Positions 1-49,900 of a DNA stretch of 53,283 nucleotides are shown one piece after another. The notes under the pieces were generated by a model. It made no database searches. It had not been told where the DNA came from and saw only the letters and a list, made by a program, of their open reading frames with translations. The position numbers and the translations under genes are program-made. Position 1 is the first letter of the stretch. Every line of letters starts with the position of its first letter. Origin of the DNA: an uncultured Methanosarcinales archaeon (lineage in GTDB: Archaea; Nanobdellota; Nanobdellia; Woesearchaeales; B54-G15). The stretch covers positions 1 to 53,283 of the forward strand of contig CAZFJK010000005.1 in the NCBI GenBank assembly GCA_964519225.1, read 5' to 3'.

Positions 1-346
1 AAAATCTTAAGCGAAGAGTTGCATACTTTGCTTCTAACCACCTAATACAATTTACGCCTATTGTCCTAACAGAAAAAAGTTCTCTTTGCTTTACTAGCCT
101 TTTGTAAATGATTGCTATTTCCTGCAGCAAACTCACTTGCCTTAAATCATATTCATAATCCCTTTTCTGAACAAAAACTATTTTTGTAACAGTACCAACC
201 TTAGCAAGCAATTCGATCGTTCTTGCCATAACAACAGGATTATCCTCAATAGAAGGAACATAGGGCAGAGCCTTACAATCGACTCTTAGAATTATTTCCT
301 CACCTGCTCGAATTACTTCATATGAAAATGCTTCTTCTCCAGCCAT
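1..346 (-). CDS. 5' part of a gene running off the window edge; probably the N-terminus of a type II/IV secretion (type IV pilus) ATPase of the DPANN type
   Basis: Not in the ORF track. Open frame from ATG at 346 (MAGEEAFSYEVIRAGEEIILRVDCKALPYVPSIEDNPVVMARTIELL...QKRDYEYD...) to base 1, with a GAGGT SD just upstream. The family call is from recalled similarity of this N-terminus; the ATPase motifs lie outside the window. Confidence 0.6.
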   Translation of the reverse strand, partial: MAGEEAFSYEVIRAGEEIILRVDCKALPYVPSIEDNPVVMARTIELLAKVGTVTKIVFVQKRDYEYDLRQVSLLQEIAIIYKRLVKQRELFSVRTIGVNCIRWLEAKYATLRLRF

Positions 347-1554: not shown

Positions 1555-2121
1555 CTAAATCTTTTCTCTCGTCAATAAAACTATAGCAAATATAGCAACG
1601 ATAAGAATAAATAATGCGCCAAGAACCTTTGTGTTAAAAATAACCTTAAACACATTTTCTTTAAACGTTCCTGCTTCACCTGGCTGAGGCTGGACTTGAG
1701 CTTCGGTGATTGCTTTAGCTTCAACCGGCGCCTTTTCAGCAGTTATCGGTAAAAGCCTTTCGCCATAGACATAGCCAAGTGCTGCAAAAAATATTATCAG
1801 TGCAATAGCTATAATCAGCATCTGAAAGCCTTTATTCTTGCTAACAAATTCAGCTATCATCTCTTCTTTTACGCCGAGAATCATCAACAGAACAAGAAGC
1901 AGAACAAGAAAAATAAAGATAACAACAAACCAAGGAGCCATGAAATTGATAACGACTAGAACATCCTTAAATAAAATCCCAAGAAAAGCAGCTATTATTG
2001 CAACAGCAGCTGCAAAAGCTTTATTCTTACCAAGGAGTTCGGTTTTGCTCAGCAAAGCATAAACAACTACAAAAATCAATAATGCAGGTAATAAAACAGC
2101 AAGATAGTTCGATATCATCAT
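1555..2121 (-). CDS. multi-pass membrane protein, paralog 3 of a tandem triplet
   Basis: About 5 hydrophobic helices; LLPALLIFVVVYALLSKTELLG motif shared with the next two genes. Confidence 0.8.
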   Translation of the reverse strand: MMISNYLAVLLPALLIFVVVYALLSKTELLGKNKAFAAAVAIIAAFLGILFKDVLVVINFMAPWFVVIFIFLVLLLVLLMILGVKEEMIAEFVSKNKGFQMLIIAIALIIFFAALGYVYGERLLPITAEKAPVEAKAITEAQVQPQPGEAGTFKENVFKVIFNTKVLGALFILIVAIFAIVLLTREKI

Positions 2122-6896: not shown

Positions 6897-9800
6897 CTAC
6901 AGAAATTCCTCTTTATAAAGCTCTGCTCGTCGTTTTGTTTTCTCAAATTCGAGTTGTAAGCTTTTATACAATTTAGCAAACCTTATTTTTCTCTTAAGCA
7001 AAGAAGCAATTTCCCTTTCACGCATCTTCAGTTCAGTCTCTGCTTCATTTAAAAGCCCGAGTAGCATTTTTTTCTTCGCATCGATTTCTTCCATCTGTCG
7101 CTTACAACGCTCCAGTGCTTGCTCTTTAAGTTTTATTTTCCTACGTCTGCTAACAATGGCTGCTTTCAAATCCGACTTTCTCTTCAAAAGCTCTTTATCT
7201 ACATGCTTCAATCCGTACTTCTCTCTTAGCCTGCGCTGCTTATCCTCGAATGATTTTATTTCTGTAAGAACCTTCTGCCGCTCGGCAAGTTCTCGTTTTG
7301 CGGCTGAGAGTTCAAACTTCAATTTTTCAGCCTTCGCTGCAAGATTAGCATGCTCCTTCTCCAATTTAGACATCTCTTCATTCAACTTCTGTAACTGCTT
7401 CTCAACTTTTGCCTTTTGTTCTTCAAGCGCAGAAATGTTTTTTTCCAAACTTGCAACTAAATTTTTGTATTGAAGCAATTTTCCTTCGAGTGCTATACTC
7501 TTCAAAGAAAATCGCTCAAACCGCCTCTTTATTCCAGTCACGGTTCGTGTATAAAGAGTATAATATCCGCCGGCAACAAGCAAAATAACAATAATGACTA
7601 ATAATAAAGCAATATTTTCTTTCAACAAATTATAAAATGCTTTAAACAATTCAACCAGACCTTTTCGTTCCATCACAGCTGGAACACCAGGAATCACTTC
7701 CTTTCTCCCAGCTTTTTCAACAACAGTCAACTCGAATATCGCATTGCCGTTTTTAACGGCTTTCAATCGCAAAGAAACATCGATTTCACCATCTCCATTA
7801 AGATCTACTTTTGCTTCATCGCCAACAAACAACTTGTATTCCTTATCATTCAAAGTAAGCTTAGCATAAGTTAATGTTAATTTCATCAGCTCAATCGAAT
7901 AAGTGCTTCCTTCAAAAACAAAATCACCGATTTCTCCTTCTGCTAAAGAAAAGGTGCCTACTTCAGAAGCAGGTCCAAGTTCGTATCTTTTCTTCTCTTC
8001 TCTCTCTTCTTCAACCGCAGCTACATGTTTTTCAGAAACACCCACAGCAGCTTCGGCACCGGCACCGCCCGCGCCTCTTTCTTCACTAACTTCTTCTTCG
8101 GCTGGTTGTTCAACAAGTGCTCCTCTAAAGTAAATAACCATCTTATCGACTGACGCGCCCTCGCCTAAAATTCTTGCCTTAAACCTAATCTTCCCTGATG
8201 AAGTATTTGCGTCGGATAAATCAGTATTTTTCTCAATGGAAATCCAGTTGTTCCCAGAATCAACAGAATAAGCATATTCAACATAGCTATCGCTTCCATA
8301 AACAGCAAATTCAATAATATGAAATCCAGAGTTCGCTGTATTCTCCAATCCTTCAACGCGCACATATCTCAACGGAGTGAATGAGCTAAAGTTATACCAT
8401 TGGACGCTTTGTGCATGCTTATTATTTACGAGCCTTGTCCAATTGCTGCCATCGGTTGAAATATATAAACTATAATTATACCATCTTCCATCGTAATCCC
8501 ACAATCTAAAATATATCTTATCGACGTAAATTAACTTCGAAAGCTCAACAGTCATATTGCAAGGCCAGGTACAATAGGCAAAGTTAGTTGACGACTCAAT
8601 ATCATCAATCAATTGTCCTGGCATGTTGTCCGCATAAGCCGTGGCTCCATGGCTTGATGATGCCCAATCATAGCTCGCGTTATAAAAAGTTTCATCGCTC
8701 GCATTAAAGCTAAGCCATCCTATCAAAATATCCGGTTCCAAGTCTTTTGTCTGAATTTCTGCGTAATCGCTTACTGTCGTGTAATTTATCTCAATCTCAT
8801 TTACTCTCGGCCTTGTCGTGTTATCACTGCTGTTCATAAAAACTTTGAATCTTAAGAATCTTTTTCCATCGTGCTCTGTGGCTATATCATCACCGTCGGC
8901 GTAATAACTTGAATTAGTGCCATCCGGACCGACGAAATTCCAACTTGCATTATCATTATTCGTGGCTATCTGCACCCCAATAAAAGTTCCGGGTGGCGTA
9001 TTAGCATCGATAGATATTTTTCCGAATTTTACATTCGTGCCAAGATCATACGTTTTACTAATATAGTTACCACTCACAGAATTTACTATATCGGACGTCC
9101 ACACACTCGTACCGCCATTCGCTAAATATATTCTTCTTCCTTTATGAGCAAGTTGGTTTATATTTGTTGTTTGCGATGCAAAACTCCAACTGTTCAACAG
9201 CTGCGGAGAACTCCAGTTACTTACATCAACAACATGAACAGTATCGCCGTTTTCATCGCCAACATAGAGATAATCACCAATTTTCGTTATGCCTTCTCCA
9301 TAGAAGCAATCGCTTGTGCTTCCGCATTCAAGGTAATCCATATCAAGGGTTCCTGCAGGAGAACCGTTTTTTAGATATCTGTAAACTGATGTATGCATCA
9401 ACGAAGGCAAGTTCCGCGTATTTGCATAGATGTAGTTCTCATCAACGCAAATTCCGATAGCAGAAACAGCTGTGAAATTAAATCCTGTATAGACCCAATT
9501 ATTACCTTCATCTGTGACAAGCCATTTTCTAATCAAATTGTCATAAGTCCAGTATTGGCTCCAAAACACAGCGGTTCCATTTCCGCTCAAATAAGGATCA
9601 AACTCCAGACCTGTATATACACCGACCATTCCTGTATTATCACCCTCGTGTCCAAAACTCGAGTTAAATCGCCTTACCTCATCCAAGTTTGCTGAGAAGA
9701 AATGATCATTGCTCCAGCCAGCAATACTTCCATTTACAAAAGTCAGATCCCACTTATCTACCGACTCTGTTGCTGTTTGAACTCCTGCATAAATGGGATC

Positions 9801-12800
9801 AGCAGCATGGTTCAAAGCGAGGGTTAAACTACTCTCTTTACTTGTATTTTCAAACATTCCTTCTGTGAAGTTTTCTTCGACTATCTTGCCATGGCTTCGC
9901 TTCAATCTCGCGGTTCCGTTCACAAGCTCAATTAAGCTTGCATTAAATATGTAATCGTTTGCGTTACTGAAATCCCAAGTGTAGTTAACTATACTTATTT
10001 CGCTTGGCGTCCTCCATAGTTCAACATAACTGCAAACAGCATTAGCACCGCCGATTCTTTGAATTTTAAGTTCGACAACTCCATCGCTTATCGCACTTGC
10101 TGGAACATCATATGTTCGTACTTCAGGATTGTACTCAGGAACAGAATAATCATCATCAACAGTATCATTATCTATGTAAACGTCAACGATTCGTCCTTCT
10201 CCTGTAGGTTGCAGGAACCAAACCTTGAACTGATAATCGTATAACGGACTTACATTATACCGCAAGATCACAGCATCGGGATGATAACTCACAGTTCTAT
10301 AACGCTTATCGATGCTTGAATTGACTCCGCTGCCAAACTCAAAATCAGTTCCCTGCATTAAATGAGGTTCATTGCTCGCATTACCACAGTCATCTTCTAA
10401 ATATGGAATAAATGCGCACGGCGGGCATGGACCGCCACAATCGATCCAATCCTCACCTTGATTCTGTATGCCATCGTTACAGCTTACGCACGTTCCTCTC
10501 TCATAAGACCAAGTAACAGAAACATTATCAAAATAGCTCCCATTGTTTCCCCAGGAATAAAGAGCAATTGTTCCTTTGCTCAGGTCAGTATCATTAACGT
10601 CGAAATAAAGAGTATTATTGATATAGCACTTTATGTTAGAACCATTAACAATTATCCTGTAATGATACCATTCTCCCAAAATTGGAGAAAACAGAGAAGA
10701 ATTGCCCAACTCTGTTCTGGTTCCGTTCACGAATTTCTCTAACTTTACAAAAGAACCGCCATCCCCCATGTTCATTCTAAACCTGTAATAACTCTCATTA
10801 TCGAGATATCTGAACATTACTCCAAGAGAATCATCATCCAGACTCATCATATCAACTTCAAACACATAGTTATTCCATTCAAAAGCATCAGAACTGTTCC
10901 AAAAAGAATATGTTCCCGGCGCATCAGTAGCAAGGTCACCACTATAAATATTGCTATCCTGAACGTAATGACCACTATCCACATACCAATTCGAAGGCGC
11001 AGAGGTTGTTCCCTGATCCACAACAGCCCATCCATCGGCATTTCCATCATCAAAATCGTCTCTGAAATCGATATCATAAACAGTTTGCAATTCGCAACTG
11101 TTCGATTGACAATCGCTATTTTGCAAACAGGTTTTTCCATCAGCGCAGCCAGCGCAATAAGGTCCTCCGCAGTCAACATCGGTTTCGTTATTGTTCTTTA
11201 TTCCGTCATTACAGCTAACGCAAATTCCAGCTTCGCAATGCCCACTTGCGCAATCATCGTTACTATTACACTGCTTTCCATCAGCACAATTAGCACCGCA
11301 TATGCCGCCGCAATCAATATCGCTTTCATCCTGATCTTTTATTCCGTTTGAGCAGCTTGGAGGTACTGTAATATTCAAACTAACATTGAATAGGCGAAGC
11401 GTTGAGTTTTCAGCATCTGCATATTGCCAAATATACGAAGCATATTGAAAATATCTGTTTTTGGGAAGATTCAAACTTGAAGGTTGTGCAATAAAAGAGG
11501 AAAAACTTTCACCACTACAAGCAAGATCATCACAACTTCTAACCTTAAATTTCAATTCAGATGCTGTATAAACATAAAGCTGTTTCACTTCGCTTGCACT
11601 TAATGCTCTTGAAAAGGCCATGACTTCATCGAATTCTCCAAAGTTTTGTCCGCCGCCAACATAGTTTCCAATATACACCAAGTCGTTAGTTTCTTGCGCA
11701 GAAGATTGACATTTATATTTTCCATCAATGTAAAACTTTGTAGTTCCTCCGCTACCAATTGCAACTAAATGATGCCATCCTGCTGAAAGAACATCCACAT
11801 CAAATCCGCATGAATAGAACCCGCTTACGTAAACACCTAACAATCCAGAACTATCTACTAAAACATGATGATGTCCTCCTCCCTGCTGGAATAATGTTCT
11901 CCATCCGCCTGTTGTGGTTGGCAACGGAAACAACACCCAAGCTGATAGCGTCCAACTGCTTCCTAAACTTATTGGTGAAACCTGAAGCATATGGTCCGAA
12001 GCAGAACAGTTAACACCATAATCCCTAAAACCATCAATCCATCCAACACCGTTTATCAAAGTAGCATTGTTTCCGTTTCCGCTGCTGTCATAAGCAGTCG
12101 TACCGCTACCTTCATCTAAATGCAATTCCAAAACAATATCAGATAGATTAAGCTCAGCATTTGTTTTCCAGCTTATGTATGTCCAATTAACCTCCTCATC
12201 GTTGATATTAATGATTGGACTGAGATATATCCCGCTATTTCCTAAGAAAGAATCAGTCACAACAGCGTCATAATCGTCATCAAAAGTGGTATTATCAAAA
12301 CTTCCGTTCAAAAAAGAATATTTTCTCGAAGCCAAAGAAATAAAAGTTCCTGAAGATGAACTTTCATTCACAGGATATAAAACCTTGAATGTTTTGTTTG
12401 AGGAAGCAAATCCACAGGCTCCATCAACATCACAACATCTTGCATTCCAATGATACCACCCTTTATCAACATTGCTCAAATCCCACGACTTCGTATCGCT
12501 CGTTCCACTAAATTGTTTTGTTTCAACCGCTTGCCAGCTTCCGCCGATATCGCTCCATAAAGTACAATTGCCCAATCCATCATCTAAATCAGTAGCGGTT
12601 ACTGTTAATGTAATATCATTTGTAAAAAAGAACTGCGTCTTGTCATCAGGACTAACCAGCGAAACATCGGGCGGAGTAGGAGTAATATTGTAATTAACAG
12701 TTGCATTATAAAGGATGGGTGTATAATTCACATTCTCAGTACTAAAATATGCTTTATACTGAAAATATCTGTTAGGCGAAACATTCAAAGAAGAGGGACT

Positions 12801-15800
12801 GTTTAAATAATAACTTGAACTTGAACCATCAGGCCCAACAAAATCTTCTCCACTACAAGCAGAATTATCGCAACTTCTCACTTGAAACTTTAAATCGAGT
12901 GCACCTCTAAGATAATGTTCCTTGATCGTGCTGGCAGAAAGCACAGAGTTGTGAACAACGAATTCATCGATATAACCATCAAAGTAATAAGTCGGACCAC
13001 CACTAACGTCTCCTGTATGCATCTTACTGCTGTCGACCATACAACCAATACTGTCATCACCTGAATGACTGTTCATAGTTACTGAAATAGATGTAGAACC
13101 AACAAGCTCACCATTCACATAAAACCTTAGTTCATCATTTCCGTCAAAAACTAAAGCAACATGATACCACTCACCGGCATCTATTGATGCTGAAAACCAG
13201 TTCCCATCCCAGCCATTTGATTCAACCCATGCTCCGCCGTAGACATATCCATTGTAGATGTAAATGCACATCCCATTCGTGCTACCTCCCTCTTCAAACA
13301 GAAAGTGTGTTCCGCTCACAGAATCTGCCTTAAACCAAAGCTCAATCGTTCTGTCTGTAAAATCGTTGTCAAATACAGCATTAGAACTCGTACTTGGGTC
13401 ATCCAAATAAACATAATCATCGATTCCATCGAAGCTTCCCCCTCTACCGAATCTTCCATCAGCACTTGTATTCGCTCCATTTCTACTTGTGAAATTAATG
13501 TTTCCTGCCCCGCAACTGTCCTTCACGTCATAATCGCTTCCACTCCACGATTGTTCATTCATATGAACCAAATATTCGCAGTCAGGAACTTCAGAACTTG
13601 TTAATTCATCACTATACCTTAATCCTTCACTCCACTCGAGTATTGTCCAGTTAACAATTCTGCCTGCGTCTTTAACTTCACTTGCATAGGTTCCATCACT
13701 ATAATAACTCGTATTACCCGAATCGCTCCAGTCAAGCACAATGCCGCTGCCATTCCATCGCGTATGATAAAAATTTCCTGAGAACGTCGTCTCGTTCTTT
13801 TCTATAAAAGCAGGATCACTGCCATTAATCAAAATAGAATATTCTTTTCCTGGAAAAACCTTTTTTAGAAAAATCCATTTCCCTAAACAGACATTATTCT
13901 TGGAATCCCAATCCGCACATTTATATAACCTATCCCCAGAAGCAACTACTTTAAACTCCATAGGCTCGTCTATTTTAGGTTCTATAACAAACAAATTATC
14001 TTTAACTAATTGAATATCGCATAGATCAGAAAGTTCCTCGCCGAGATAAAGATCATTTATCCTTAAAGATTTTATCTTCTTATCTTCAAACAACAATTCA
14101 ACATCATACAAACCTTCTGTTACACTATCGGATTGAAGTTCTTCAACAGAAAATCCGGTAAGTTTATTAAGAACTTTTACTCTTTTCAAAGATACCCCAC
14201 TCGCCCTAGGATTGAATTTCACCTTCTTAGGAACACCGAATTTTAAAATCTCAGTATGTTTTCCAACGATAATACTAAAAAACCGCCCTTTCCAATCAAA
14301 TACCTTCAAGAGCACAACCTTATTACCCTCAGCTTTTGATTTACTTAACTCATATTTCACATTTCCAACAATTTTAATTGGCAAAACCTTATCATAAGTA
14401 TGGTAAAATCGTACAATCAGTGTGCCATTCAAAATTTCAGTTGAATTGACTATAACATCGAACAGAGGATCGTCTTTCAATTTTTGATAGCTCACATTAA
14501 CTTCACTTGTATTCGTCTTGCTTTCATTTTTGAACAACAGCCAAAAAGGTTCAAAATCAGGTTTAACCGATATTTCCCCCTTTCCAACAAATATCAGATC
14601 GTCATCGCATTCAGAACAAAAATAAACATTACTATTTGAGTCAAGCAGCACATTAATATTCGAAGTTTCTGCTTCAAACTCAAAAAAGATTCCTTTATCT
14701 TTTTCCTTTACAACTCCAAGTCTCTTCAAATCAGAATCCACTTTGAAATCGAATTTTATTTTCTTCAGTCTTTTCATGTTTAAGGAAAACTCAATAGTAT
14801 GAGTTCCTTTGTTGATTTCATGTTCGTCTCCATAAGAAACTTCCTTTCCATCAAGCTCCACCTTTGCAACATCTTTTTCTGAGATCCCCTTAAACTTTAA
14901 ACTAACAGAAGGCAGTTTTTCTTTCGATTTTTTTATGTAGTAATTTATCCGCTCAAGCCAAAGTTTACCATCGACTTTAACAACAACCTTCAACTTCTTC
15001 TTACCTCTAATGTTCAAAGCGCATGTTTCAACACATTCCCCATCCAAAACAATCGCGTTTTTCTTAGGAAGCTCTTTGTCTTTTGTCGCATTTACTGCTG
15101 TTTCGTTAATTTTTTCTATTTCTTCAACTTTTTCAATCTCTTCTCTTCTTTCTTCCATTTCTTCTGAGATATTTTCTTCTTTTTTAATGACAACAGCGCT
15201 CTTAGTTTCATTAATCCGAATCTCCTTTCTAGACTCATTAATTTCAAAGGTGTCTTTTGTCGCATTTACTGTCTTCGCTTCTTCTTTTTCCTCATTTTCT
15301 TCTTTTGTTCCCTCCTCAACAATAGAAGCATCTTCCACCTGTTTTTCTTCTGTTCCTTCCTCCTTTGTAGTTTCTTCTTTGCTTTCGCTGACTTTCTCGA
15401 CGTTCTTATCTTCTTTTTCTACTTGAGGTTCTTCTACAGTTTCTTTGCCTTCTTCAGTTTCCTCGGTTTTCTCTGTTTCTTTTTCATCAAGTTGTTGTTC
15501 GGTTTTCTCAGGTTTTTCTGACGTTTCTTTTTCTTGCTTAGATTCCTCTTCTTCACCTAGCTCATTTATCTCTTCTTCTTCTACCTTCTCTCTATCATCA
15601 ATTTTTTCTTTCTCAACCACAGGCTTAGCTTTTTTAATCCTCTCAATCACTATCTTTCCTGCCTCTTGTTCCTTTTTTTCAATAGCATTACTGATCACAT
15701 CTTTTGCAATATGATAACCAATCAAGGATTGCTCAAGTTCTTCAGGAAAGGCGTAAACAATGTATTCTTTTCCAGAATCGTCTTCGAGGTATATTTCAAA

Positions 15801-16076
15801 AGAATCGCCAGAAAAATTACCGTAAACAGTTAAACCAATCAAAGTTTCATTTTCCTCAAGCTCGAGTTGAAAAGAACGATCAGTTATTATGTAAGAATCG
15901 ACTTGAATAAATTTCTCCTCTAAATTCTCATATAGAAACATTCCTGAAATCGGGTAATTACATCCATACAAACCAATAAGTAGTACAATAAAAACCAGTC
16001 CAGCAACTATTAAAACCTCTTTTTTCATACTTCTAAAACTCAGAAAACTTTTTGGTTTATAAAATTTGTTTTTCAC
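6897..16076 (-). CDS. giant membrane-anchored surface protein: 2 LamG domains, 3 CxDG...DCGG Cys repeats, ConA/DUF1080-like, CBM-like, propeller-like and F5/8-like domains, C-terminal TM and coiled-coil tail
   Basis: 9.2-kb open frame; N-terminal hydrophobic signal (likely start MKKEVLIVAG at 16028); LamG motifs (TIELWFK, WYHVALVFD, FYVNG, FDGYIDEF; WHHLVA, FYIDG, GEFDEV); many NxS/T sequons; TM IALLLVIIVILLVAGGYY. Confidence 0.9.
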   Translation of the reverse strand: MKNKFYKPKSFLSFRSMKKEVLIVAGLVFIVLLIGLYGCNYPISGMFLYENLEEKFIQVDSYIITDRSFQLELEENETLIGLTVYGNFSGDSFEIYLEDDSGKEYIVYAFPEELEQSLIGYHIAKDVISNAIEKKEQEAGKIVIERIKKAKPVVEKEKIDDREKVEEEEINELGEEEESKQEKETSEKPEKTEQQLDEKETEKTEETEEGKETVEEPQVEKEDKNVEKVSESKEETTKEEGTEEKQVEDASIVEEGTKEENEEKEEAKTVNATKDTFEINESRKEIRINETKSAVVIKKEENISEEMEERREEIEKVEEIEKINETAVNATKDKELPKKNAIVLDGECVETCALNIRGKKKLKVVVKVDGKLWLERINYYIKKSKEKLPSVSLKFKGISEKDVAKVELDGKEVSYGDEHEINKGTHTIEFSLNMKRLKKIKFDFKVDSDLKRLGVVKEKDKGIFFEFEAETSNINVLLDSNSNVYFCSECDDDLIFVGKGEISVKPDFEPFWLLFKNESKTNTSEVNVSYQKLKDDPLFDVIVNSTEILNGTLIVRFYHTYDKVLPIKIVGNVKYELSKSKAEGNKVVLLKVFDWKGRFFSIIVGKHTEILKFGVPKKVKFNPRASGVSLKRVKVLNKLTGFSVEELQSDSVTEGLYDVELLFEDKKIKSLRINDLYLGEELSDLCDIQLVKDNLFVIEPKIDEPMEFKVVASGDRLYKCADWDSKNNVCLGKWIFLKKVFPGKEYSILINGSDPAFIEKNETTFSGNFYHTRWNGSGIVLDWSDSGNTSYYSDGTYASEVKDAGRIVNWTILEWSEGLRYSDELTSSEVPDCEYLVHMNEQSWSGSDYDVKDSCGAGNINFTSRNGANTSADGRFGRGGSFDGIDDYVYLDDPSTSSNAVFDNDFTDRTIELWFKADSVSGTHFLFEEGGSTNGMCIYIYNGYVYGGAWVESNGWDGNWFSASIDAGEWYHVALVFDGNDELRFYVNGELVGSTSISVTMNSHSGDDSIGCMVDSSKMHTGDVSGGPTYYFDGYIDEFVVHNSVLSASTIKEHYLRGALDLKFQVRSCDNSACSGEDFVGPDGSSSSYYLNSPSSLNVSPNRYFQYKAYFSTENVNYTPILYNATVNYNITPTPPDVSLVSPDDKTQFFFTNDITLTVTATDLDDGLGNCTLWSDIGGSWQAVETKQFSGTSDTKSWDLSNVDKGWYHWNARCCDVDGACGFASSNKTFKVLYPVNESSSSGTFISLASRKYSFLNGSFDNTTFDDDYDAVVTDSFLGNSGIYLSPIININDEEVNWTYISWKTNAELNLSDIVLELHLDEGSGTTAYDSSGNGNNATLINGVGWIDGFRDYGVNCSASDHMLQVSPISLGSSWTLSAWVLFPLPTTTGGWRTLFQQGGGHHHVLVDSSGLLGVYVSGFYSCGFDVDVLSAGWHHLVAIGSGGTTKFYIDGKYKCQSSAQETNDLVYIGNYVGGGQNFGEFDEVMAFSRALSASEVKQLYVYTASELKFKVRSCDDLACSGESFSSFIAQPSSLNLPKNRYFQYASYIWQYADAENSTLRLFNVSLNITVPPSCSNGIKDQDESDIDCGGICGANCADGKQCNSNDDCASGHCEAGICVSCNDGIKNNNETDVDCGGPYCAGCADGKTCLQNSDCQSNSCELQTVYDIDFRDDFDDGNADGWAVVDQGTTSAPSNWYVDSGHYVQDSNIYSGDLATDAPGTYSFWNSSDAFEWNNYVFEVDMMSLDDDSLGVMFRYLDNESYYRFRMNMGDGGSFVKLEKFVNGTRTELGNSSLFSPILGEWYHYRIIVNGSNIKCYINNTLYFDVNDTDLSKGTIALYSWGNNGSYFDNVSVTWSYERGTCVSCNDGIQNQGEDWIDCGGPCPPCAFIPYLEDDCGNASNEPHLMQGTDFEFGSGVNSSIDKRYRTVSYHPDAVILRYNVSPLYDYQFKVWFLQPTGEGRIVDVYIDNDTVDDDYSVPEYNPEVRTYDVPASAISDGVVELKIQRIGGANAVCSYVELWRTPSEISIVNYTWDFSNANDYIFNASLIELVNGTARLKRSHGKIVEENFTEGMFENTSKESSLTLALNHAADPIYAGVQTATESVDKWDLTFVNGSIAGWSNDHFFSANLDEVRRFNSSFGHEGDNTGMVGVYTGLEFDPYLSGNGTAVFWSQYWTYDNLIRKWLVTDEGNNWVYTGFNFTAVSAIGICVDENYIYANTRNLPSLMHTSVYRYLKNGSPAGTLDMDYLECGSTSDCFYGEGITKIGDYLYVGDENGDTVHVVDVSNWSSPQLLNSWSFASQTTNINQLAHKGRRIYLANGGTSVWTSDIVNSVSGNYISKTYDLGTNVKFGKISIDANTPPGTFIGVQIATNNDNASWNFVGPDGTNSSYYADGDDIATEHDGKRFLRFKVFMNSSDNTTRPRVNEIEINYTTVSDYAEIQTKDLEPDILIGWLSFNASDETFYNASYDWASSSHGATAYADNMPGQLIDDIESSTNFAYCTWPCNMTVELSKLIYVDKIYFRLWDYDGRWYNYSLYISTDGSNWTRLVNNKHAQSVQWYNFSSFTPLRYVRVEGLENTANSGFHIIEFAVYGSDSYVEYAYSVDSGNNWISIEKNTDLSDANTSSGKIRFKARILGEGASVDKMVIYFRGALVEQPAEEEVSEERGAGGAGAEAAVGVSEKHVAAVEEEREEKKRYELGPASEVGTFSLAEGEIGDFVFEGSTYSIELMKLTLTYAKLTLNDKEYKLFVGDEAKVDLNGDGEIDVSLRLKAVKNGNAIFELTVVEKAGRKEVIPGVPAVMERKGLVELFKAFYNLLKENIALLLVIIVILLVAGGYYTLYTRTVTGIKRRFERFSLKSIALEGKLLQYKNLVASLEKNISALEEQKAKVEKQLQKLNEEMSKLEKEHANLAAKAEKLKFELSAAKRELAERQKVLTEIKSFEDKQRRLREKYGLKHVDKELLKRKSDLKAAIVSRRRKIKLKEQALERCKRQMEEIDAKKKMLLGLLNEAETELKMREREIASLLKRKIRFAKLYKSLQLEFEKTKRRAELYKEEFL
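15077..15271. repeat. exact 21-bp direct repeat TGTCTTTTGTCGCATTTACTG at 15077-15097 and 15251-15271
   Basis: Read directly; encodes VNATKD twice in the Glu/Lys-rich tract. Confidence 0.85.
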
Positions 16077-18736: not shown

Positions 18737-20566
18737 ATGCCAAAGTCAGCTCAAGCCCAACCAGAGTACATAGAAAGAATCGTACCAGACACATCAATCA
18801 TAATAGACGGCGTTCTCTCAGAACAGATCGAAAAAAAGCAGATCAGAACCGACGAAATCATAATCCACGAAGCTGTTTTAGCAGAGCTTGAGCATCAGGC
18901 AAATCTCGGCAAAGCAAGCGGATTTCTCGGCTTGGATGAAATAAAAAAACTAAGAGAACTTGCTTCTAAACAGGAATTCAAAATCTCGTTCCTCGGCACA
19001 AGGCCTTCGGCAGGAGCAATCCGCTATGCAAAACTCGGTGAAATCGACGCTATGATAAGAAATCTTGCATGGGAGCTTGGAGCAACCCTAATCACAGCAG
19101 ATAAAACCCAAGCAAGGGTTGCAGATGCAAGGAGCATAGCCGTAAAGCTGGTCATCAAGGAAAAAGCAGAACCAAGAATAAAACTCGAACAATTCTTCGA
19201 TGAACAAACAATGTCCATTCACCTAAGGGAAAACTTACAGCCTTATGCTAAAAAAGGAAAACCAGGAAAATGGCGATTTGTTCAGATCAAAAAAGAAATA
19301 CTAACCCAAAAGGACATGCGTGAGATAGCAAAAGAAATCATTGAAGAAGCACGCCTTAGGGAAGACGGCTTTATAGAAATAGAACGAGAAGGAAGCACCA
19401 TAATTCAGCTCGGAACATTGCGGATTGTTATCACAAAGCCACCATTTGCAGATGGCTGGGAAATAACAGCTGTAAGACCAATTAAACAGCTCAGACTAAA
19501 GGACTACAAATTAAGCAAAAAACTCACAGAACGCCTTGAAAGAGCAGAAGGAATTCTTATTGCTGGTGCTCCAGGACACGGTAAAACAACATTTGCTCAA
19601 GCACTTGCAACCTTTTATGCAAAAACGGACAAAGTAGTTAAAACTGTCGAAGCGCCTCGCGATTTACAGCTAGGCCCGAAAATAACTCAATACGCTGTCT
19701 CGCATGGCAGCCTAGAAGAAATCCATGATATTCTTCTACTTTCAAGACCAGATTACACAATTTTTGATGAAATAAGAAACACAAAAGATTTCAGGTTATT
19801 TGCAGATATGCGTCTAACAGGTATAGGAATGGTCGGCGTTGTCCATGCAACACAGCCAATCGATGCAATACAGCGCTTCATCGGCAGAATAGAACTCGGA
19901 ATGATTCCTCACATCATCGACACAGTCATTTTTATCAAAGATGGAAAAGTAGACAAAGTTTATTCCCTCACTATGACAGTCAAAGTTCCGAGTGGAATGA
20001 CAGAAGCTGATTTAGCAAGGCCTGTTGTACTTGTAAGCGACTTTGAAACAGGAAAACCAGAATATGAAATCTACACCTATGGCGAAGAAACAGTCATTGT
20101 TCCTATGCAGGAAACAAAAACAAGCATGCAACAACTAGCTGCAAAAGCCATCGAAGATTATTTCAAAAAATATTCACCAAAGATAAAAGCTGAACTTATT
20201 GGCTCGAACAGAGCAATAGTTTATGTTCCAGAAAAGATAATACCGCGTGTAATAGGAAAAAAAGGAAAAGAGATAGAACGCATAGAAAAAGAGCTCGGCA
20301 TAAAAATAGATATCCAAGAGTTAGTACAGCCAAAGAGGATTCTAAAATCAATAAAATTCGAAGTCGATTTTTCAAAAACAGATATCATTTTTTACCTTGA
20401 AAAATCCATGCGTAATAAAGAAATAGCTATATACTCTGGTGATGAACTAATTACCTCGGTCTTTGCAAGCAAAAAAGCGACGATAAGAATAAAGCGAGAA
20501 AGCCAAATAGGAAAAGAAATCGAATCCGCAATAAACAAAGGAAAGATAAGGCTCGTCCAAAAATAA
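18737..20566 (+). CDS. PIN-domain ATPase with KH domain (PINA / PINc-VapC ATPase)
   Basis: PIN VPDTS...ELE...D...TAD; Walker A GAPGHGKTT; IFDEIR; GVVHA; KH VIGKKGKEI. Confidence 0.93.
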   Translation: MPKSAQAQPEYIERIVPDTSIIIDGVLSEQIEKKQIRTDEIIIHEAVLAELEHQANLGKASGFLGLDEIKKLRELASKQEFKISFLGTRPSAGAIRYAKLGEIDAMIRNLAWELGATLITADKTQARVADARSIAVKLVIKEKAEPRIKLEQFFDEQTMSIHLRENLQPYAKKGKPGKWRFVQIKKEILTQKDMREIAKEIIEEARLREDGFIEIEREGSTIIQLGTLRIVITKPPFADGWEITAVRPIKQLRLKDYKLSKKLTERLERAEGILIAGAPGHGKTTFAQALATFYAKTDKVVKTVEAPRDLQLGPKITQYAVSHGSLEEIHDILLLSRPDYTIFDEIRNTKDFRLFADMRLTGIGMVGVVHATQPIDAIQRFIGRIELGMIPHIIDTVIFIKDGKVDKVYSLTMTVKVPSGMTEADLARPVVLVSDFETGKPEYEIYTYGEETVIVPMQETKTSMQQLAAKAIEDYFKKYSPKIKAELIGSNRAIVYVPEKIIPRVIGKKGKEIERIEKELGIKIDIQELVQPKRILKSIKFEVDFSKTDIIFYLEKSMRNKEIAIYSGDELITSVFASKKATIRIKRESQIGKEIESAINKGKIRLVQK

Positions 20567-37013: not shown

Positions 37014-38780
37014 ATGCGCATAGCAGTCATAGAAAAGGAACGTTGCATAAACGGAAAAGGCTGCAATTTCCTCTGCGGAAAGCTTTGCCCTGTAAACAGA
37101 CAGGGAAAAGAATGTATCAAACTCGATGAAAAAAACAAACCAATAATAGATGAATCCCTCTGCATCGGCTGTGGAATCTGCATAAAACGATGTCCTACGC
37201 AATGTATTCATATTGTTAATTTACCAGAACAGTTAAAAGAAAAACCAATCCACCGCTATGGCATCAACGGCTTTGAATTGTTCAGTCTTCCAACACCAAT
37301 ATTCAATTCAATAGTTGGCATAATAGGCAGAAACGGCATTGGAAAATCAACCGCACTGCAGATAATCGCTGGTCTGCTAAAACCAAATCTCGGCATCCAA
37401 GGAAAAAAAGCAACTTTCGATGAATTGATCCAGCATTTCAAAGGAACAGAAGCGCAAACCTTTTTTGAAAATCTAAAGGAAGGAAAAATAAAATCAAGCT
37501 TCAAACCGCAACAGGTTGATCTAATTCCAGCCATTGAAAAAGGCAAGGTTAGAGACTTGCTCAAAAAAGTGGATGCATCAAATCGCTTAACTGAAATAGC
37601 AAAAGCGCTTGAAATAGAAAAATTACTCGAAAGCGACATCAAGCATCTAAGCGGAGGCGAACTACAGCGAGTTGCAATAGCAGCTGCATTCCTCAAAGAT
37701 GCAAATCTAATTATTCTTGATGAACCAACTTCTTTTCTTGATATAAAACAAAGGCTGAAAGCAGCAAGGTTCATTAGACAAGAACGCTCAGCAGAAAAAT
37801 CAATCATCCTTGTTGAGCACGACTTAATCGTCTTAGATTATCTTACTGATTATATCCATATCGCTTATGGAAAACCTTCTGTATTTGGTGTAATATCTAT
37901 GCTAAAATCAGCTAGGGCAGGCATAAACACTTATCTCGAAGGTTATCTAAAAGAAGAAAACATCCGCTTCAGAGATTATCCAATCCAATTCCAGGAAAGA
38001 GCACCACCAAAAGAAGAGCCAACAGCTATCTTAACTAAATGGACAGAACTCAAATTTGCTTATGAAAGATTCAATCTAACTGCAACTGAAGGATGCATCT
38101 ACAAGAATGATGTCATTGGCGTTCTTGGCGAAAACGGCATAGGAAAAACAACATTCATAAAACTTCTTGCAGGTGAACTCAAACCAGTTGAAGGTGAAAT
38201 TGAAAAAAATATAACAATAAGCTATAAACCACAATTTCTAAGAGAATTTGCAGAACAAAACAAGGACGTTACAGTTAAAGATATTTTAAAAGAAGCAATC
38301 ACAAAATACAAGCATCAGCTAATTGCGCCACTCGAACTCGAAAGGTTATATGATAGAAAACTATCAGAGCTCAGCGGCGGTGAACTTCAAAGAGTTGCTA
38401 TAGCCCAATGCCTTGCCAAGAAAGCAGACCTCTATCTATTAGACGAACCATCAGCATATCTTGACATTGAACAAAGACTTGCCCTTGCAAAAATAATCAA
38501 TGAAATTCTTTTCCATTTAAATGCATCAGCTATTATTGTTGACCACGATTTGCTTTTTATCGACTCAATAGCAAAGCGGATTCTTGTTTTTCAAGGCGTT
38601 CCAGCAGAGCATGGCATAGCAAAAGGTCCTTTTGACATGGAAACAGGAATGAATCTCTTTCTCAAAGACCTTGGCATTACTTTCAGACGCGATCCCGAAA
38701 CAAAAAGGCCGCGCGCCAATAAGCCTGGAAGCGTAAAAGACCGCGAACAAAAGGAATTAGGAAAGTATTATTATGTATAA
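37014..38780 (+). CDS. rli1: ABCE1/Rli1 ribosome recycling ATPase
   Basis: N-terminal 2x[4Fe-4S] Cys motifs, two ABC domains (GRNGIGKS, LSGGELQR, DEP), TFRRD...RPRANK. Confidence 0.97.
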   Translation: MRIAVIEKERCINGKGCNFLCGKLCPVNRQGKECIKLDEKNKPIIDESLCIGCGICIKRCPTQCIHIVNLPEQLKEKPIHRYGINGFELFSLPTPIFNSIVGIIGRNGIGKSTALQIIAGLLKPNLGIQGKKATFDELIQHFKGTEAQTFFENLKEGKIKSSFKPQQVDLIPAIEKGKVRDLLKKVDASNRLTEIAKALEIEKLLESDIKHLSGGELQRVAIAAAFLKDANLIILDEPTSFLDIKQRLKAARFIRQERSAEKSIILVEHDLIVLDYLTDYIHIAYGKPSVFGVISMLKSARAGINTYLEGYLKEENIRFRDYPIQFQERAPPKEEPTAILTKWTELKFAYERFNLTATEGCIYKNDVIGVLGENGIGKTTFIKLLAGELKPVEGEIEKNITISYKPQFLREFAEQNKDVTVKDILKEAITKYKHQLIAPLELERLYDRKLSELSGGELQRVAIAQCLAKKADLYLLDEPSAYLDIEQRLALAKIINEILFHLNASAIIVDHDLLFIDSIAKRILVFQGVPAEHGIAKGPFDMETGMNLFLKDLGITFRRDPETKRPRANKPGSVKDREQKELGKYYYV

Positions 38781-46934: not shown

Positions 46935-49900
46935 CTAAGCTTTTCTATAGGCTAGATAGAATAAGCCTAACAGAAATGCAAACAGCCCAGCAGCAACAGC
47001 AATCATCACAATATTCCTTTCAATCCATGTTCTACTTACAGTAATCACAGCCGGTTTTTCAGTGATCTTCTCTTTCTGAGCTATCAAATACCTACAGCTT
47101 TCAATAACGTCATTCAAAATTCTTTGCCCTTCTTCAACCCGACCTTCAGCTATTGCTTTTATAGCATCCTCAACCATCTCATTAAGCTCCAAGCATTCTG
47201 GGTTTGCTGAAAGCAGATCTCTAACATATTGAACGCTTCTATTTATTTGTAAAGCTGTTAGTGACACAACGATCTCGTCCTCTGCTTGCGGACTCGTTGC
47301 TTTCGCTTTCACTTTAACATCAAACTCAACATCCATTCTTGGGGGTCTTACTGTAAGCGTAACAGGAACTTCACTGCCAGGCGCAATTGCAGGGAAATAA
47401 CTTTGCGAAAAAGAAAATGAAACTCCCAGTAATGTAGTACTTGCTTCTAAACTGATACCGGCAAGCGATTCATTTAAAGTATTCTTAACAAGCAAAGGGA
47501 TCTCAAAATATCCCTCCTTAGCAACGATAGGCTTTGCTTCCAACATAGCAACATGTTCAAGCCGCGTGATATTTTTAGTTATGGTCTGTGTTCTGGTCCT
47601 TGTTCTCGTTCTTGTCCGCGTAACAGTACGCTGCTGTGCTTGAACTGGAGATATATTAATGATAATTTGATTGCTATAAACGATATCATAGCCGTCATAA
47701 AGCGAAAAATTAATTTCTTTTTCACCAGAAGTGTTAATATTTGGGAGCAAGTCAACAACATTGTTGCTATCTATTGAAATATTAATGTCGCTCGGAGCGC
47801 TATAATTAAACGTCAGATTATCATCAATATCATAGTCCCAGAAGAAATAATCGAGGTCTATCCAATCATATATATAGTTTCCTTGCGTAAGATTAACATC
47901 ATTTATCCCGTAATGTATTGTTACAGAATCGAGTTCAGGCGTAGCCGAACAACTGGTCGTATTCATAACAATCTTGTACTGAAAATACCTGCCAGCAGGA
48001 GAAACAATCACAGAGCCATTACTATTAATATAGTTAGTACTCCAATTTGTAAAATTAGTACCGTTAGTACTCGTTCTCGTTTGTAAAACCAAGCTTGTTC
48101 CGCTAGGCAAAGTGGCATTCCAGCTTATATTAATCCACTTTATGCAGTCGCCGCACATATCAACATCCTTAGTAGGACTTCCAGGATCAATTACTTTTGA
48201 AATATAAGTTCCATTAGAAACGTAGCATGTTCCATTAGAAGCTAGGATAATCTTGCCCGACATTGCCATTAAATCCGTACCATTTGTCGTTCCACCACTA
48301 AAATCAGTCAATGTATCATGTATTATTAATCCAAATATTGGTGGCCTATTTTTGTTCAGCACAGTTATCATCCAAGTAAAGCTATCCTCCCATCCATTCT
48401 GGTTTCCTATTCCAGAACCATCACTTACATAAAGTGTAATGTTTTCGCTTCCTGCATCATACCAACCATAAGTCCTTGTCAATGAATTACTCGTTGAGAT
48501 CTGGCTTCCATTTCTGTACCAATAATAATATACAGTATCATTATCAGGCTCGTCAATCGTAACATTGATAACATAGCTCGCATTTTCACTCAAATTCACC
48601 CACGTTATATTATTTGGAAAGTTCATCCTTGGAGCAAAATCTATTTTCGTTGTGTTTGAATAAGGCAAACCATATGGAGTAATATTAGTTATTCCAAGAG
48701 GAGCATTCGGCAAAACAGTAATATTGAATATGCTTGTATCGCACAAACCTTCATCATCGCAAACAGTGAAATTAATCCATTCTGTTCCATTAAAGCTCAA
48801 ATCAGGAAAGAAATCAATTATGCCATAGCAGATATATTGCTGGCATGATTTTGTAATATTGAAAAGTGTACTATTGTCATAAAAGGTAAGATTTTCTCCG
48901 TACTTTGTGTACATATCCAAATCAGTAACATTTATCTCGTAATGAAACTTAAATCCTTGTTCAGCGGTTAGATTTACAGGATCTGTAATATTCGGCCTTG
49001 AATTTATGTTAAAAACAGTAAAATTAATTACTCTACTATCGCAAAGTCCACCAGGATCGCAAGCACTTATATTTATCGTCCAGTTTCCAACGGCTTCTTT
49101 TCCAGGAGTAAAATTAGCGAGTGCCTCAAATCTCGACCCATAGCTATTATCGATCAAAAACCAGCTTTCATTTGCGCTGAAAGTAAGCGTATCATTTTCC
49201 CTGTCTGTTGCATTCATATAACAATTAAAAGGCACAGAGTATGTAGCATTAGTCGCATTATCACAAACAAAATCAAGATGGGGTTTTGTATTTAGCGGCG
49301 TAACATTGAAAACAACATTTTTTGAGCCGGTCGCATTTCTAGCATCCATACAAGTAATTAAAACATTATACACGCCCCAATCTTCAAATCTCGGAGTAAA
49401 GTTAATGATTCCGTCATTAGAGATGTTAAACAAATCTGTGTTATCAGTATAATTCCAGTAGGGCTTATCATCTTCCTCGTCGCTCGTGTACTGCGAAACA
49501 TTCACGTAGCACGTATTATTTTCAACGCAATGTACATAGTTCAAACTTATAATCGGTTCATCATTCCTCGGCGTAAGATTAAAAGGTTTACTTCCGACAC
49601 CTTTCTGTTGATCCCTCGTGTCAGTTGCTATCAAACCAACTATCCAATAGCCTGCTCCAGAATCGTTGTTAAAATAAATAGTTATCATTCCTGTATTTGA
49701 ATTTAGGCTAAATCCTGTAGGTAAAGGCACACCAGCTTCGTACGAATAAACAAAATATTGCTTATCAGAAGGATCATTTAATACATCTGCACTAAAATCG
49801 TAGTGACACACGCTGTCTTCAACACATACTGTTTCTGATAAATTTCCATCATTAGCTATAATAGGCTTTACCTGAATTGTATAAACAAGTAGCCCGCCGA

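Follow-up and report, generated by a model that had tools for sequence, protein, structure and literature searches.

We find that a protein of 3,059 aa, encoded in the window (the whole 53,283-nucleotide stretch of DNA that was analyzed), is probably an adhesin with three copies of an unnamed beta-sandwich, in which copies 1 and 2 each hold a LamG domain inside the sandwich and copy 3 stands behind the remnant of a propeller. From its sequence, the protein appears to be a giant surface protein that a small-genome archaeon anchors in its membrane; a hydrophobicity scan placed a hydrophobic signal/anchor at the N terminus (aa 16-43) and a transmembrane helix near the C terminus (aa 2813-2843), with a long ectodomain between them and a coiled-coil tail behind (aa 2844-3059, with a weak SMC-like coiled-coil match at aa 2854-3055). 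All of the pieces named in a preliminary description of this DNA lie where it had placed them, within this single ORF (Table 1).

Table 1. Positions of the sandwich copies, their inserts and the related features in the window.
Feature	Residues (aa)	Window position	Strand	Evidence
Whole ORF, 3,059 aa		6897..16076	minus	ORF list and translation
Copy 1 N-half, N-strands and strands b3-b4	756-817	13626..13811	minus	family profile, AF2
Copy 1 insert, conserved linker and LamG domain	818-1060	12897..13625	minus	Pfam, VIA
Copy 1 C-half, strands b5-b7	1061-1130	12687..12896	minus	family profile
Copy 2 N-half	1249-1308	12153..12332	minus	family profile, N-strand profile, motif
Copy 2 insert, LamG domain	1309-1505	11562..12152	minus	Pfam
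Copy 2 C-half	1506-1571	11364..11561	minus	match to copy 1 C-half, rejoined-unit score
Claimed copy 4 N piece, recurrent motif	2030-2059	9900..9989	minus	phmmer/jackhmmer matches
Copy 3 upstream N-motif, EENFTEGMFENTS...LTLAL	2066-2087	9816..9881	minus	motif search, MAFFT
Copy 3 passenger, divergent LVIVD-type propeller-like region	2088-2329	9090..9815	minus	Pfam LVIVD repeat
Copy 3 core, contiguous canonical sandwich form	2330-2434	8775..9089	minus	family profile, AF2
Claimed copy 4 middle piece	2435-2462	8691..8774	minus	no significant match
F5/8 type C (discoidin/CBM32-like) domain	2463-2596	8289..8690	minus	Pfam PF00754, VIA
Claimed copy 4 C piece, directly after F5/8 domain	2597-2650	8127..8288	minus	scores at null level
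Unsplit unit with N-motif strands and core		47907..48314

Results

Three copies of an unnamed sandwich family

The sandwich comprises ~110-135 aa and its core bears the signature G.Y.S..D....W..ISW / KFQ(I/V).. / GPDG(T/S)..YY / RY.(Q/R)YK / P.L..V.(I/V).Y. The core is widespread (1,383 clusters at 50% identity, E ≤ 1e-3), and it had no match in Pfam, NCBIfam or PDB sequences. We scored the copies against a family profile made from 143 unsplit domains, all from other proteins. A match spanning the core (profile positions ~56-163) was obtained with copy 3 in place (139.4 bits) and with copies 1 and 2 once their inserts were excised in silico; after excision the scores of copies 1, 2 and 3 were 88.1, 15.9 and 147.1 bits. 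Comparisons within the protein (phmmer, Z=1) likewise linked copies 1 and 2 through their C-halves (40.4-40.7 bits, iE 1.6e-14) and the C-half of copy 1 with copy 3 (16.6 bits, iE 5.7e-7), although each N-half scored weakly when taken alone (0.6 bits in copy 1 and 0.2 bits in copy 2). Thus, judged by the family profile, copies 1, 2 and 3 are homologous. The preliminary description had counted four occurrences of the unit; the fourth, rejoined from its pieces, reached only 2.2 bits, which is at chance level (see below).

The copy 3 core also matched, weakly, genes for tails or tail fibres in three records from two Geobacillus phages (24-25% identity over 88% of the domain, E 2e-4 to 6e-4), such that these phage proteins appear to share the same core, and the ESM Atlas clusters nearest to the core include phage clusters without a Pfam family.

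LamG domains lie inside copies 1 and 2

The family profile matched copy 1 in two complementary parts, with positions 52-87 at aa 779-817 (14.2 bits) and positions 94-163 at aa 1061-1130 (63.1 bits), and excision of the intervening residues merged these into one match over profile positions 54-163. In copy 2, the N-half matched profile positions 31-90 (5.1 bits, iE 0.0016), the motif F..G.F.NT begins at aa 1255, and the rejoined unit matched positions 61-156. What lies between the halves is in each case a LamG domain: Laminin_G_3 (PF13385, gathering cut-off 27.6 bits) scored 78.9 bits at aa 884-1051 and 63.8 bits at aa 1364-1498. In both copies the insertion point, as read from the profile alignment, falls in the b4-b5 loop (profile positions ~87-94), and the claim that a whole LamG domain is enclosed at one fixed loop of copies 1 and 2 is thus borne out.

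The AF2 model of the copy 1 module (aa 745-1135; mean pLDDT 85.0, pTM 0.86) agrees with this arrangement. Its LamG domain aligned by VIA with 5hon_B over 191 residues (Z 22.4, rmsd 2.3; model residues 86-312), and since the LamG fold matches in this model begin at model residue 76 or later (at least 76), the N-half of copy 1, which has a pLDDT of 90-98 over most of its length, lies outside of the LamG fold. The strands outside LamG (50-54, 58-73 and, after the insert, 316-325, 358-369 and 378-387) mirror those of the unsplit copy 3 core in its AF2 model (315-320, 324-340, 345-354, 386-397 and 405-415). By homology and these confidence scores, the two halves of the split unit would close into one sandwich.

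The same composite is found in other proteins. Among the 198 proteins (222 cores) of our survey set, a split at profile positions ~87-95 recurs in 19 others, with inserts of 219-254 aa that are LamG by Pfam in the 18 proteins from the LamG-module query, and an archaeal relative (L015) has the same split with a 226-aa insert (Laminin_G_3, 64.4 bits). The whole module (aa 745-1135) has 47 homologues, 24 of which cover at least 85% of it, and the composite extends to proteins of CPR bacteria, several with pilin-type N-terminal signals. Conservation of the module across proteins is therefore evident in these alignments, and since every clear split at this later loop among the 198 proteins has an insert of 219-254 aa, LamG-in-sandwich is a fixed composite module, and probably an old one.

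Copy 3 and the order of N-motif, passenger and core

Copy 3 differs from the other two copies. Its core is uninterrupted, with a pLDDT of 94-98 over most of its length in an AF2 model whose surroundings are all disordered, and only a 22-aa motif stands apart upstream; to say that the unit is always split was thus an overstatement. The protein contains the motif F..G.[FYW].[ND]T at only two places (from aa 2070 in copy 3, and in copy 2), compared to 0.009 occurrences expected, and MAFFT placed the copy 3 motif in register with the N-motif of the family, its F and G falling in nearly invariant columns of alignment A4. The N-motif profile of the family, however, matched no N-piece of the 3,059-aa protein, and a second N-strand profile did not match the copy 3 motif and was weak on copies 1 (1.6 bits at aa 756-780) and 2 (6.1 bits at aa 1253-1267). 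Between motif and core, the passenger contains one LVIVD repeat (PF08309; 28.9 bits, cut-off 20.2) and resembles, weakly and at several sites, the LVIVD regions of two other proteins, P0076 (2.3e-5) and P0153 (1.6e-4); its AF2 pLDDT is below 50. The preliminary description had copy 3 enclose a ~240-aa propeller-like region, and the order of upstream motif, LVIVD repeat and core holds, but the core itself is not interrupted. We suggest that copy 3 is an intact core behind a remnant of an LVIVD-type propeller, with its N-terminal strand motif ~240 aa upstream.

This order matches a layout found throughout the family, with P0124 and P0073 as example members. In the survey set, which was chosen for the core or the LamG module and in which the count of N-motif followed by core is therefore biased, 72 of the 222 cores have an upstream N-motif with no other core between; four of these are contiguous (27-41 aa from N-motif to core), and in the other 68 the gap is 67-683 aa and falls into size classes. 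A fully contiguous unit of N-motif and core is also encoded in the second large ORF of the window. Passengers could be named by Pfam in six of the 10 proteins scanned (Lcl_C, FG-GAP, Kelch, LVIVD in two proteins, and Laminin_G_3), and in the other four no family was found between N-motif and core. Thus, the passengers at this position are diverse, as far as domain matches tell. The heads described beforehand as swappable do vary between N-motif and core, but for the later loop the word goes too far: its clear splits among the 198 proteins all have inserts of 219-254 aa, and an F5/8-like domain was seen there once, in a relative.

We considered that the C-terminal part of the protein might instead be a simple string of domains, in which the motifs are linker or cap strands of neighboring domains and the two LamG units are the only true insertions. 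Indeed, the core is confidently folded by AF2 without any N-strand, the N-motif is undetectable in 150 of the 222 cores, and cores also stand in pure tandem, up to six in a row, with no such motif; thus the core must be able to fold when N-strands are absent, and the motif might be an element of its own. Furthermore, many cores directly follow Kelch, YVTN-like, FG-GAP, RCC1-like repeats or LamG (labels assigned by eye) with no recognized upstream motif, and the copy 3 motif was detected by neither N-strand profile. In contrast, the same N-motif accompanies at least five passenger families, and also none, which links it with the core and not with the passengers. The equivalent strands in the LamG composite are moreover conserved and adjoin b3 with a pLDDT of 90-96, and all of the named passengers belong to folds (LamG, discoidin, C-type-lectin-like domains and propellers) whose N and C termini lie close together, the geometry that an inserted domain needs. 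We therefore regard the simple string as possible but doubtful, and prefer the reading in which copy 3 is a sandwich behind a propeller remnant; from the sequences, we infer that the N-motif strands pack onto the core, in which case propellers and lectin folds would hang from an earlier loop.

A fourth, nested copy is at chance level

The preliminary description also proposed a divergent fourth sandwich, in three pieces, whose early loop would enclose the whole of copy 3 and whose late loop would enclose an F5/8-like domain. The F5/8 domain itself stands: scanned alone, it matched PF00754 at 33.8 bits (E 4.3e-8, profile positions 5-125 of 127), above the gathering cut-off of 28.2 bits (25.5 bits in the whole-protein scan), and VIA aligned it with CBM32-type chains (Z 8.0-8.8, from a model of middling confidence). 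The middle piece of the claimed copy ends directly before this self-complete domain and the C piece begins directly after it, and hhalign aligned the rejoined pieces over 108 columns in the register that had been proposed. A precedent exists in a relative, L012, where a unit with statistical support carries an F5/8-like domain (PF00754 at 22.5 bits, E 1.4e-4, below the cut-off) in the late loop, between N- and C-halves that score 8.9 and 80.0 bits, as well as an N-motif ~170 aa upstream, such that both loops appear occupied in this one relative. Three proteins have N-motifs in tandem ahead of at least two cores.

The sequence scores, however, do not distinguish the fourth copy from noise. The rejoined pieces (2.2 bits) fell below the 95th percentile of 500 shuffles (3.6 bits; maximum 10.0), and their hhalign score (12.19) was reached by 18 of 60 shuffles and by 17 of 60 random triplets. 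For the C piece, the profile score was in the range of the shuffles and the hhalign score (12.1) in that of the null. The middle piece had no significant match and an AF2 pLDDT of ~25-33, in a model (aa 2020-2660) that was poor overall (pLDDT 46.4, pTM 0.32), and BLASTP found no similarity between copy 4 and the L012 unit. The N piece did match elsewhere (phmmer/jackhmmer), at two sites in P0177 and in P0145, but P0177 has a single core, so the motif does not pair one-to-one with cores; moreover, the order N, core, core (10 proteins) is more common than N, N, core, core (three proteins). Thus, we consider the nested fourth copy quite improbable. We note separately that its C piece follows the F5/8 domain in a position analogous to that of the L012 C-half after its F5/8-like insert.

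The broader proposal, of a display chassis with two permissive loops, fares unevenly. A fixed loop for LamG and diverse passengers upstream of the core both agree with it, but nesting by way of copy 4 is at chance. We give little credence to the full version, in which the sandwich would be a general chassis of CPR bacteria, small-genome archaea and phages, with propellers or lectin folds in the early loop, LamG or discoidin in the late loop, and nesting two deep in this protein.

Discussion

In the reading that we prefer, the b4-b5 loop of copies 1 and 2 contains an entire LamG lectin-like domain together with its linker, so that the small sandwich would hold the larger lectin domain by both ends. 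We infer that such heads, as carbohydrate- or protein-binding domains, could be presented rigidly and sideways in order to attach to another cell or to a surface; the protein as a whole probably acts as an adhesin, and one may speculate that it has a role in host recognition.

A known structural parallel differs in how the lectin is mounted, since the lectin module of Streptococcus sanguinis PilC is appended to a pilin fold, whereas here the lectin domain would lie inside a small sandwich. PilC (PDB 7oa8/7oa7) resembles our protein in having a LamG/ConA-like module on a surface-exposed carrier for adhesion, and that module is a fold neighbor of LamG-1 by VIA (Z 15.8, rmsd 3.0, 195 aligned). 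The pilin methylation motif (PF07963, N_methyl), which seven of the composite's 47 homologues share with modular type IV pilins, gave no match (E ≤ 0.1) anywhere in our protein, which would be anchored, unlike PilC, by its signal/anchor and C-terminal transmembrane helix.

As in other domain-insertion architectures, a complete guest domain interrupts its host in sequence. A recent survey covers both simple (A1-B-A2) and nested (A1-B1-C-B2-A2) insertions and, in its available text, documents multi-level nesting in other proteins and describes inserts as consistently smaller than their hosts (Protein Sci 2026, PMC13114784). Contrary to that general trend, as the available text gives it, the guest here (~240 aa with linker) is about twice the size of its host (~110-135 aa). 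Giant LamG-rich surface proteins of DPANN archaea, for example of nanohaloarchaea, have been proposed to act in host attachment, and they share with this protein a small-genome archaeal source, a very large membrane-anchored ectoprotein and several LamG domains; compared by description only, they are presented as a linear series of domains, with no host sandwich mentioned in the available text (PMC10266531).

If the reading is correct, this protein carries its lectin heads within a small host sandwich, not one after another along the chain, and interruption of the sandwich by a whole lectin-like domain appears, from the sequences compared, to be a recurring way to mount binding heads. In ultra-small symbiotic microbes, the usual annotation of an adhesin is a string of LamG, Ig-like and "unknown" regions, and an abundant unnamed domain would account for a large part of the "unknown" sequence that surrounds LamG domains. 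A profile with two interruption points would give better domain boundaries for structure prediction and for expression of single heads, and would permit a census of the heads displayed by CPR and DPANN organisms and by phages.

Distribution of the core domain

Among 1.84 billion representative proteins, 1,383 match the contiguous core of copy 3 of the sandwich unit (aa 2330-2435 of the surface protein) at E<=1e-3, of which 276 reach E<=1e-10; in nearly all of the 150 matches listed, a single stretch spans query positions ~6-104. By these matches, the unit is a common domain that normally carries no split. Of 60 genomes from the same order, 16 contain it at E<=1e-3. Within the window's own genome (868,879 bases in 53 contigs; completeness estimate 97%), the domain occurs three times, and a search there for paralogues found none. 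One occurrence belongs to another large protein of surface type in the window (ORF 46935-51425; 1,496 aa), which has a Big_9 match; here an N-terminal strand motif (N-motif; aa 1038-1064, 13.2 bits) directly precedes the core (aa 1045-1173, 64.4 bits). In two Geobacillus phages (three records), genes for tail or tail-fibre proteins matched the core weakly.

The domain is without a name in the collections searched: Pfam gave no match to four pieces at E<=10, NCBIfam gave none to the window's core (other results were single-member only, with E at least 0.0013), among PDB sequences a profile search brought up no relative of the core (the best, ribosomal protein L9 at E 1, is chance), and the core's nearest ESM Atlas clusters are unnamed or "hypothetical." In a VIA fold search, 7z47_G was the only match restricted to the core (Z 6.8, rmsd 5.2), which is not evidence for a new fold.

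LamG interrupts the sandwich in copies 1 and 2

The preliminary description assigned nine pieces to four split copies of the unit, and their translation agrees with the sequences it reported, both SCD..ACSGE strings included. When the protein was searched against itself, the C-half of copy 1 matched that of copy 2 (40.7 bits, iE 1.6e-14) and also copy 3 (16.6 bits, iE 5.7e-7); scores between the N-halves of the first two copies were only 0.6 and 0.2 bits. We then used a family profile for which other proteins supplied 143 unsplit domains. Copy 1 matched it twice, at profile positions 52-87 (aa 779-817, 14.2 bits) and 94-163 (aa 1061-1130, 63.1 bits); since these ranges are complementary, copy 1 reads as one domain split by LamG. 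The N-half of copy 2 matched positions 31-90 (aa 1249-1308, 5.1 bits, iE 0.0016) and its C-half in place reached only -2.0 bits, while copy 3 matched as a single piece (139.4 bits). When inserts were excised in silico, rejoined copy 1 gave one match of 88.1 bits (positions 54-163), copy 2 gave 15.9 bits and copy 3 147.1 bits. The inserts are Laminin_G_3 domains in Pfam, at aa 884-1051 (78.9 bits) and aa 1364-1498 (63.8 bits), respectively. At the level of sequence, the splicing of LamG into copies 1 and 2 is thereby shown, as had been proposed.

The same arrangement recurs in other proteins. With aa 745-1135 as query, a set of 2,931 candidates 215-685 aa long yielded 47 proteins at E<=1e-3, with source names that include Nomurabacteria, Roizmanbacteria and Harrisonbacteria; coverage of the query reaches 85% or more in 24 of the 47, the PF07963 motif for pilin methylation is present in seven, and both flanks and the linker are conserved in their alignment. 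Applied to all 198 proteins of the homologue set, the profile detected 218 unsplit domains of full length, along with 22 candidates for a split. In 19 proteins, not counting the protein of the window itself and two weak candidates whose gaps are short, the split falls at profile positions ~87-95 and is filled by 219-254 aa. A relative's locus, L015, has the same split, with a 226-aa insert that contains Laminin_G_3 (64.4 bits). Judged from these alignments, the LamG-split unit is conserved as a composite and is no local accident.

Structure models argue for a single sandwich

We modeled aa 745-1135 with AF2 (29-row alignment; pLDDT 85.0, pTM 0.86). In VIA searches with this model, LamG fold neighbors span model residues 76 or later to ~316; for the LamG of copy 1 they include 5hon_B (Z 22.4) and the PilC pilin module 7oa8_A (Z 15.8). 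Because these neighbors begin at residue 76 or later, the N-half of copy 1 is predicted to lie outside the LamG fold. The composite has strands outside LamG at 50-54 and 58-73 and, after the insert, at 316-325, 358-369 and 378-387; the unsplit core of copy 3, in a model of aa 2020-2660, has strands at 315-320, 324-340, 345-354, 386-397 and 405-415. The five-strand pattern is thus common to both and is broken only between strands two and three, from which we infer that the split halves would form one sandwich.

The model of aa 2020-2660 (18-row alignment) was poor overall (pLDDT 46.4, pTM 0.32) and gives no verdict on nesting; it is confident only in the copy 3 core, at pLDDT 94-98 despite disorder all around, and in part of the F5/8 domain. 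Its Foldseek matches to viral structures, at TM ~0.1 and rmsd 16-47 Å, are meaningless.

An early loop may accept passengers

The preliminary description held that the unit is always split. For copy 3, an upstream piece (aa 2066-2087) with the motif F..G.F.NT is indeed present, but the core itself is contiguous. This motif occurs in the protein only in that piece and in copy 2, compared to 0.009 occurrences expected; the window's six-frame translation (106,562 aa) contains it three times. MAFFT places the copy 3 motif in register with the family N-motif, whose consensus among homologues, WTQTT..DF..G...NT.....G.V.L, has 82 instances in 196 proteins. An N-motif lies 27-41 aa upstream of the core in 4 of 222 cores and 67-683 aa upstream, with no intervening core, in 68; a further 63 cores lack it with <45 aa of room and 87 lack it despite room. 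The distances in those 68 fall into size classes near 180-200, 280-385, 430, 545 and 620-683 aa. In 6 of 10 separated cases scanned, the passenger between N-motif and core is a named Pfam family (see table), and in the other four no Pfam family was found there. The passenger of the window's copy 3 has one LVIVD repeat above cut-off (28.9 bits) and weak similarity to the LVIVD regions of two homologues, P0076 and P0153.

Several observations count against an early-loop reading: neither of two N-strand profiles reported the copy 3 motif, most cores have no N-motif, motif-free core arrays exist, and the proteins counted had been chosen because they contain a core or the LamG module. Complex prediction of the copy 3 N-motif (aa 2060-2099) with the copy 3 core (aa 2325-2436), run on the family alignment without controls, gave 0.18 and 0.13 (mark 0.32) and weighs on neither side. 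At E<=1e-3, neither aa 2433-2660 nor aa 2060-2335 had a homologue among proteins of near length, and a search of sixty related genomes with aa 2020-2660 matched the core alone, in four genomes. We infer that passengers may be spliced into the sandwich at an early loop. We also considered that each core might own an N-motif in nested order, like balanced brackets. The order "N, core, core" occurs in 10 proteins versus 3 with "N, N, core, core...," and since core arrays without N-motifs exist, this idea is unsupported.

The proposed fourth copy

A divergent copy 4 (aa 2030-2059, 2435-2462 and 2597-2650) had been proposed to enclose copy 3 and the F5/8 domain. By sequence it does not rise above chance: the rejoined unit scored 2.2 bits against the family profile, compared to a mean of 1.0, a 95th percentile of 3.6 and a maximum of 10.0 in 500 shuffles, and its hhalign score in the proposed register (12.19) was matched by 18 of 60 shuffles and, when three pieces of this ectodomain were picked at random and joined, by 17 of 60 such joins. 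Searched within the protein, its pieces match only themselves. Its N piece does recur as a genuine motif, with matches in homologues P0177 (two sites) and P0145; P0177 has a single core, and thus the motif is no marker of an outer sandwich. In the window this motif, Y.W.F....DY.F....IE...G.A.L, lies at 9900-9989 (-), and its counterparts at the two P0177 sites and in P0145, as well as one in P0179 identified by eye, stand next to N-motifs.

The layout claimed for copy 4 does find some support. An entire F5/8 domain occupies aa 2463-2596 (33.8 bits), with the middle and C pieces directly adjoining. Moreover, a statistically supported unit at L012, a locus in a relative of the same order (G042:C41:32323-35610, within a 15,809-aa open frame), runs from N-motif through ~150-165 aa without an assignment to an N-half, an F5/8-like insert and a C-half. 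BLASTP found no similarity between the window's F5/8 unit and this one (best E 0.22), and a search of 61 genomes with the L012 unit matched elsewhere the C-half alone.

The whole protein and its surroundings

Across the whole protein, Pfam recognizes Laminin_G_3 in three stretches, Big_7, a jelly roll of the 3-keto-disaccharide-hydrolase type, F5/8 type C and a single LVIVD repeat. On both sides of the jelly roll stand short repeats rich in cysteine, C..C.DG..N..E..(I/V)DCGG.C..C.... The coiled-coil tail would be intracellular on the inferred topology, which is unusual for an adhesin. Two neighboring genes, for an RLI/ABCE1-type ATPase and a PIN-ATPase-KH protein, are what we take to be archaeal markers, and fit an archaeal genome. 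Its size suggests that the organism may be DPANN-like.

Features of the surface protein, its surroundings and related units
Feature	Location	Residues	Strand	Basis
ORF of whole protein	window 6897-16076	3,059 aa	-	
Hydrophobic signal/anchor, N-terminal		aa 16-43	-	hydrophobicity scan
Long Glu/Lys-rich low-complexity stretch after signal/anchor	window ~15060-15690	aa ~130-340	-	sequence
Cysteine-rich repeats	window ~11090-11363 and ~10420-10500	aa ~1572-1662 and 1858-1885	-	translation only
Transmembrane helix		aa 2813-2843	-	hydrophobicity scan
Coiled-coil tail, ~215 aa, after transmembrane helix	window 6900-7547	aa 2844-3059	-	weak SMC-like match at aa 2854-3055
PIN + T2SSE-type ATPase + KH protein	window 18737-20566		+	neighboring gene
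RLI/ABCE1-type ABC ATPase with 4Fe-4S domains	window 37014-38780		+	neighboring gene
Unsplit reference unit, N-motif directly before core	window 47907-48314		-	inside ORF 46935-51425
N-motif	L012	aa 131-150		11.6 bits
N-half	L012	aa 303-344		8.9 bits, iE 1e-4
F5/8-like insert, late loop	L012	156 aa		E 1.4e-4, 22.5 bits, below Pfam's cut-off
C-half	L012	aa 501-574		80.0 bits
Passenger Lcl_C	P0073, between N-motif and core			Pfam
Passenger FG-GAP	P0112, between N-motif and core			Pfam
Passenger Kelch	P0181, between N-motif and core			Pfam
Passenger LVIVD propeller	P0124, P0076, between N-motif and core			Pfam
Passenger Laminin_G_3	P0125, between N-motif and core			Pfam

A possible display socket

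Domain insertion and nesting are already well documented; one survey reports an inserted domain in 20% of multidomain proteins, the insert being usually smaller than its host (PMC13114784). Openly accessible full-text literature yielded no account of this host sandwich or of a LamG domain inside it. The host sandwich family and its role appear undescribed in the literature searched and in Pfam, NCBIfam and PDB sequences.

Most probably, the small sandwich would act as a socket that takes up a binding domain in one of its surface loops. In LamG, discoidin, C-type-lectin-like and propeller folds, the two termini lie near each other. Because both ends of the spliced domain would lie close together in a surface loop, it would be held by both and project sideways from the stalk. 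The domain types, together with the attachment role that one report proposes for LamG-rich DPANN surface proteins (PMC10266531), suggest that the protein may serve in attachment to another cell or to glycans.
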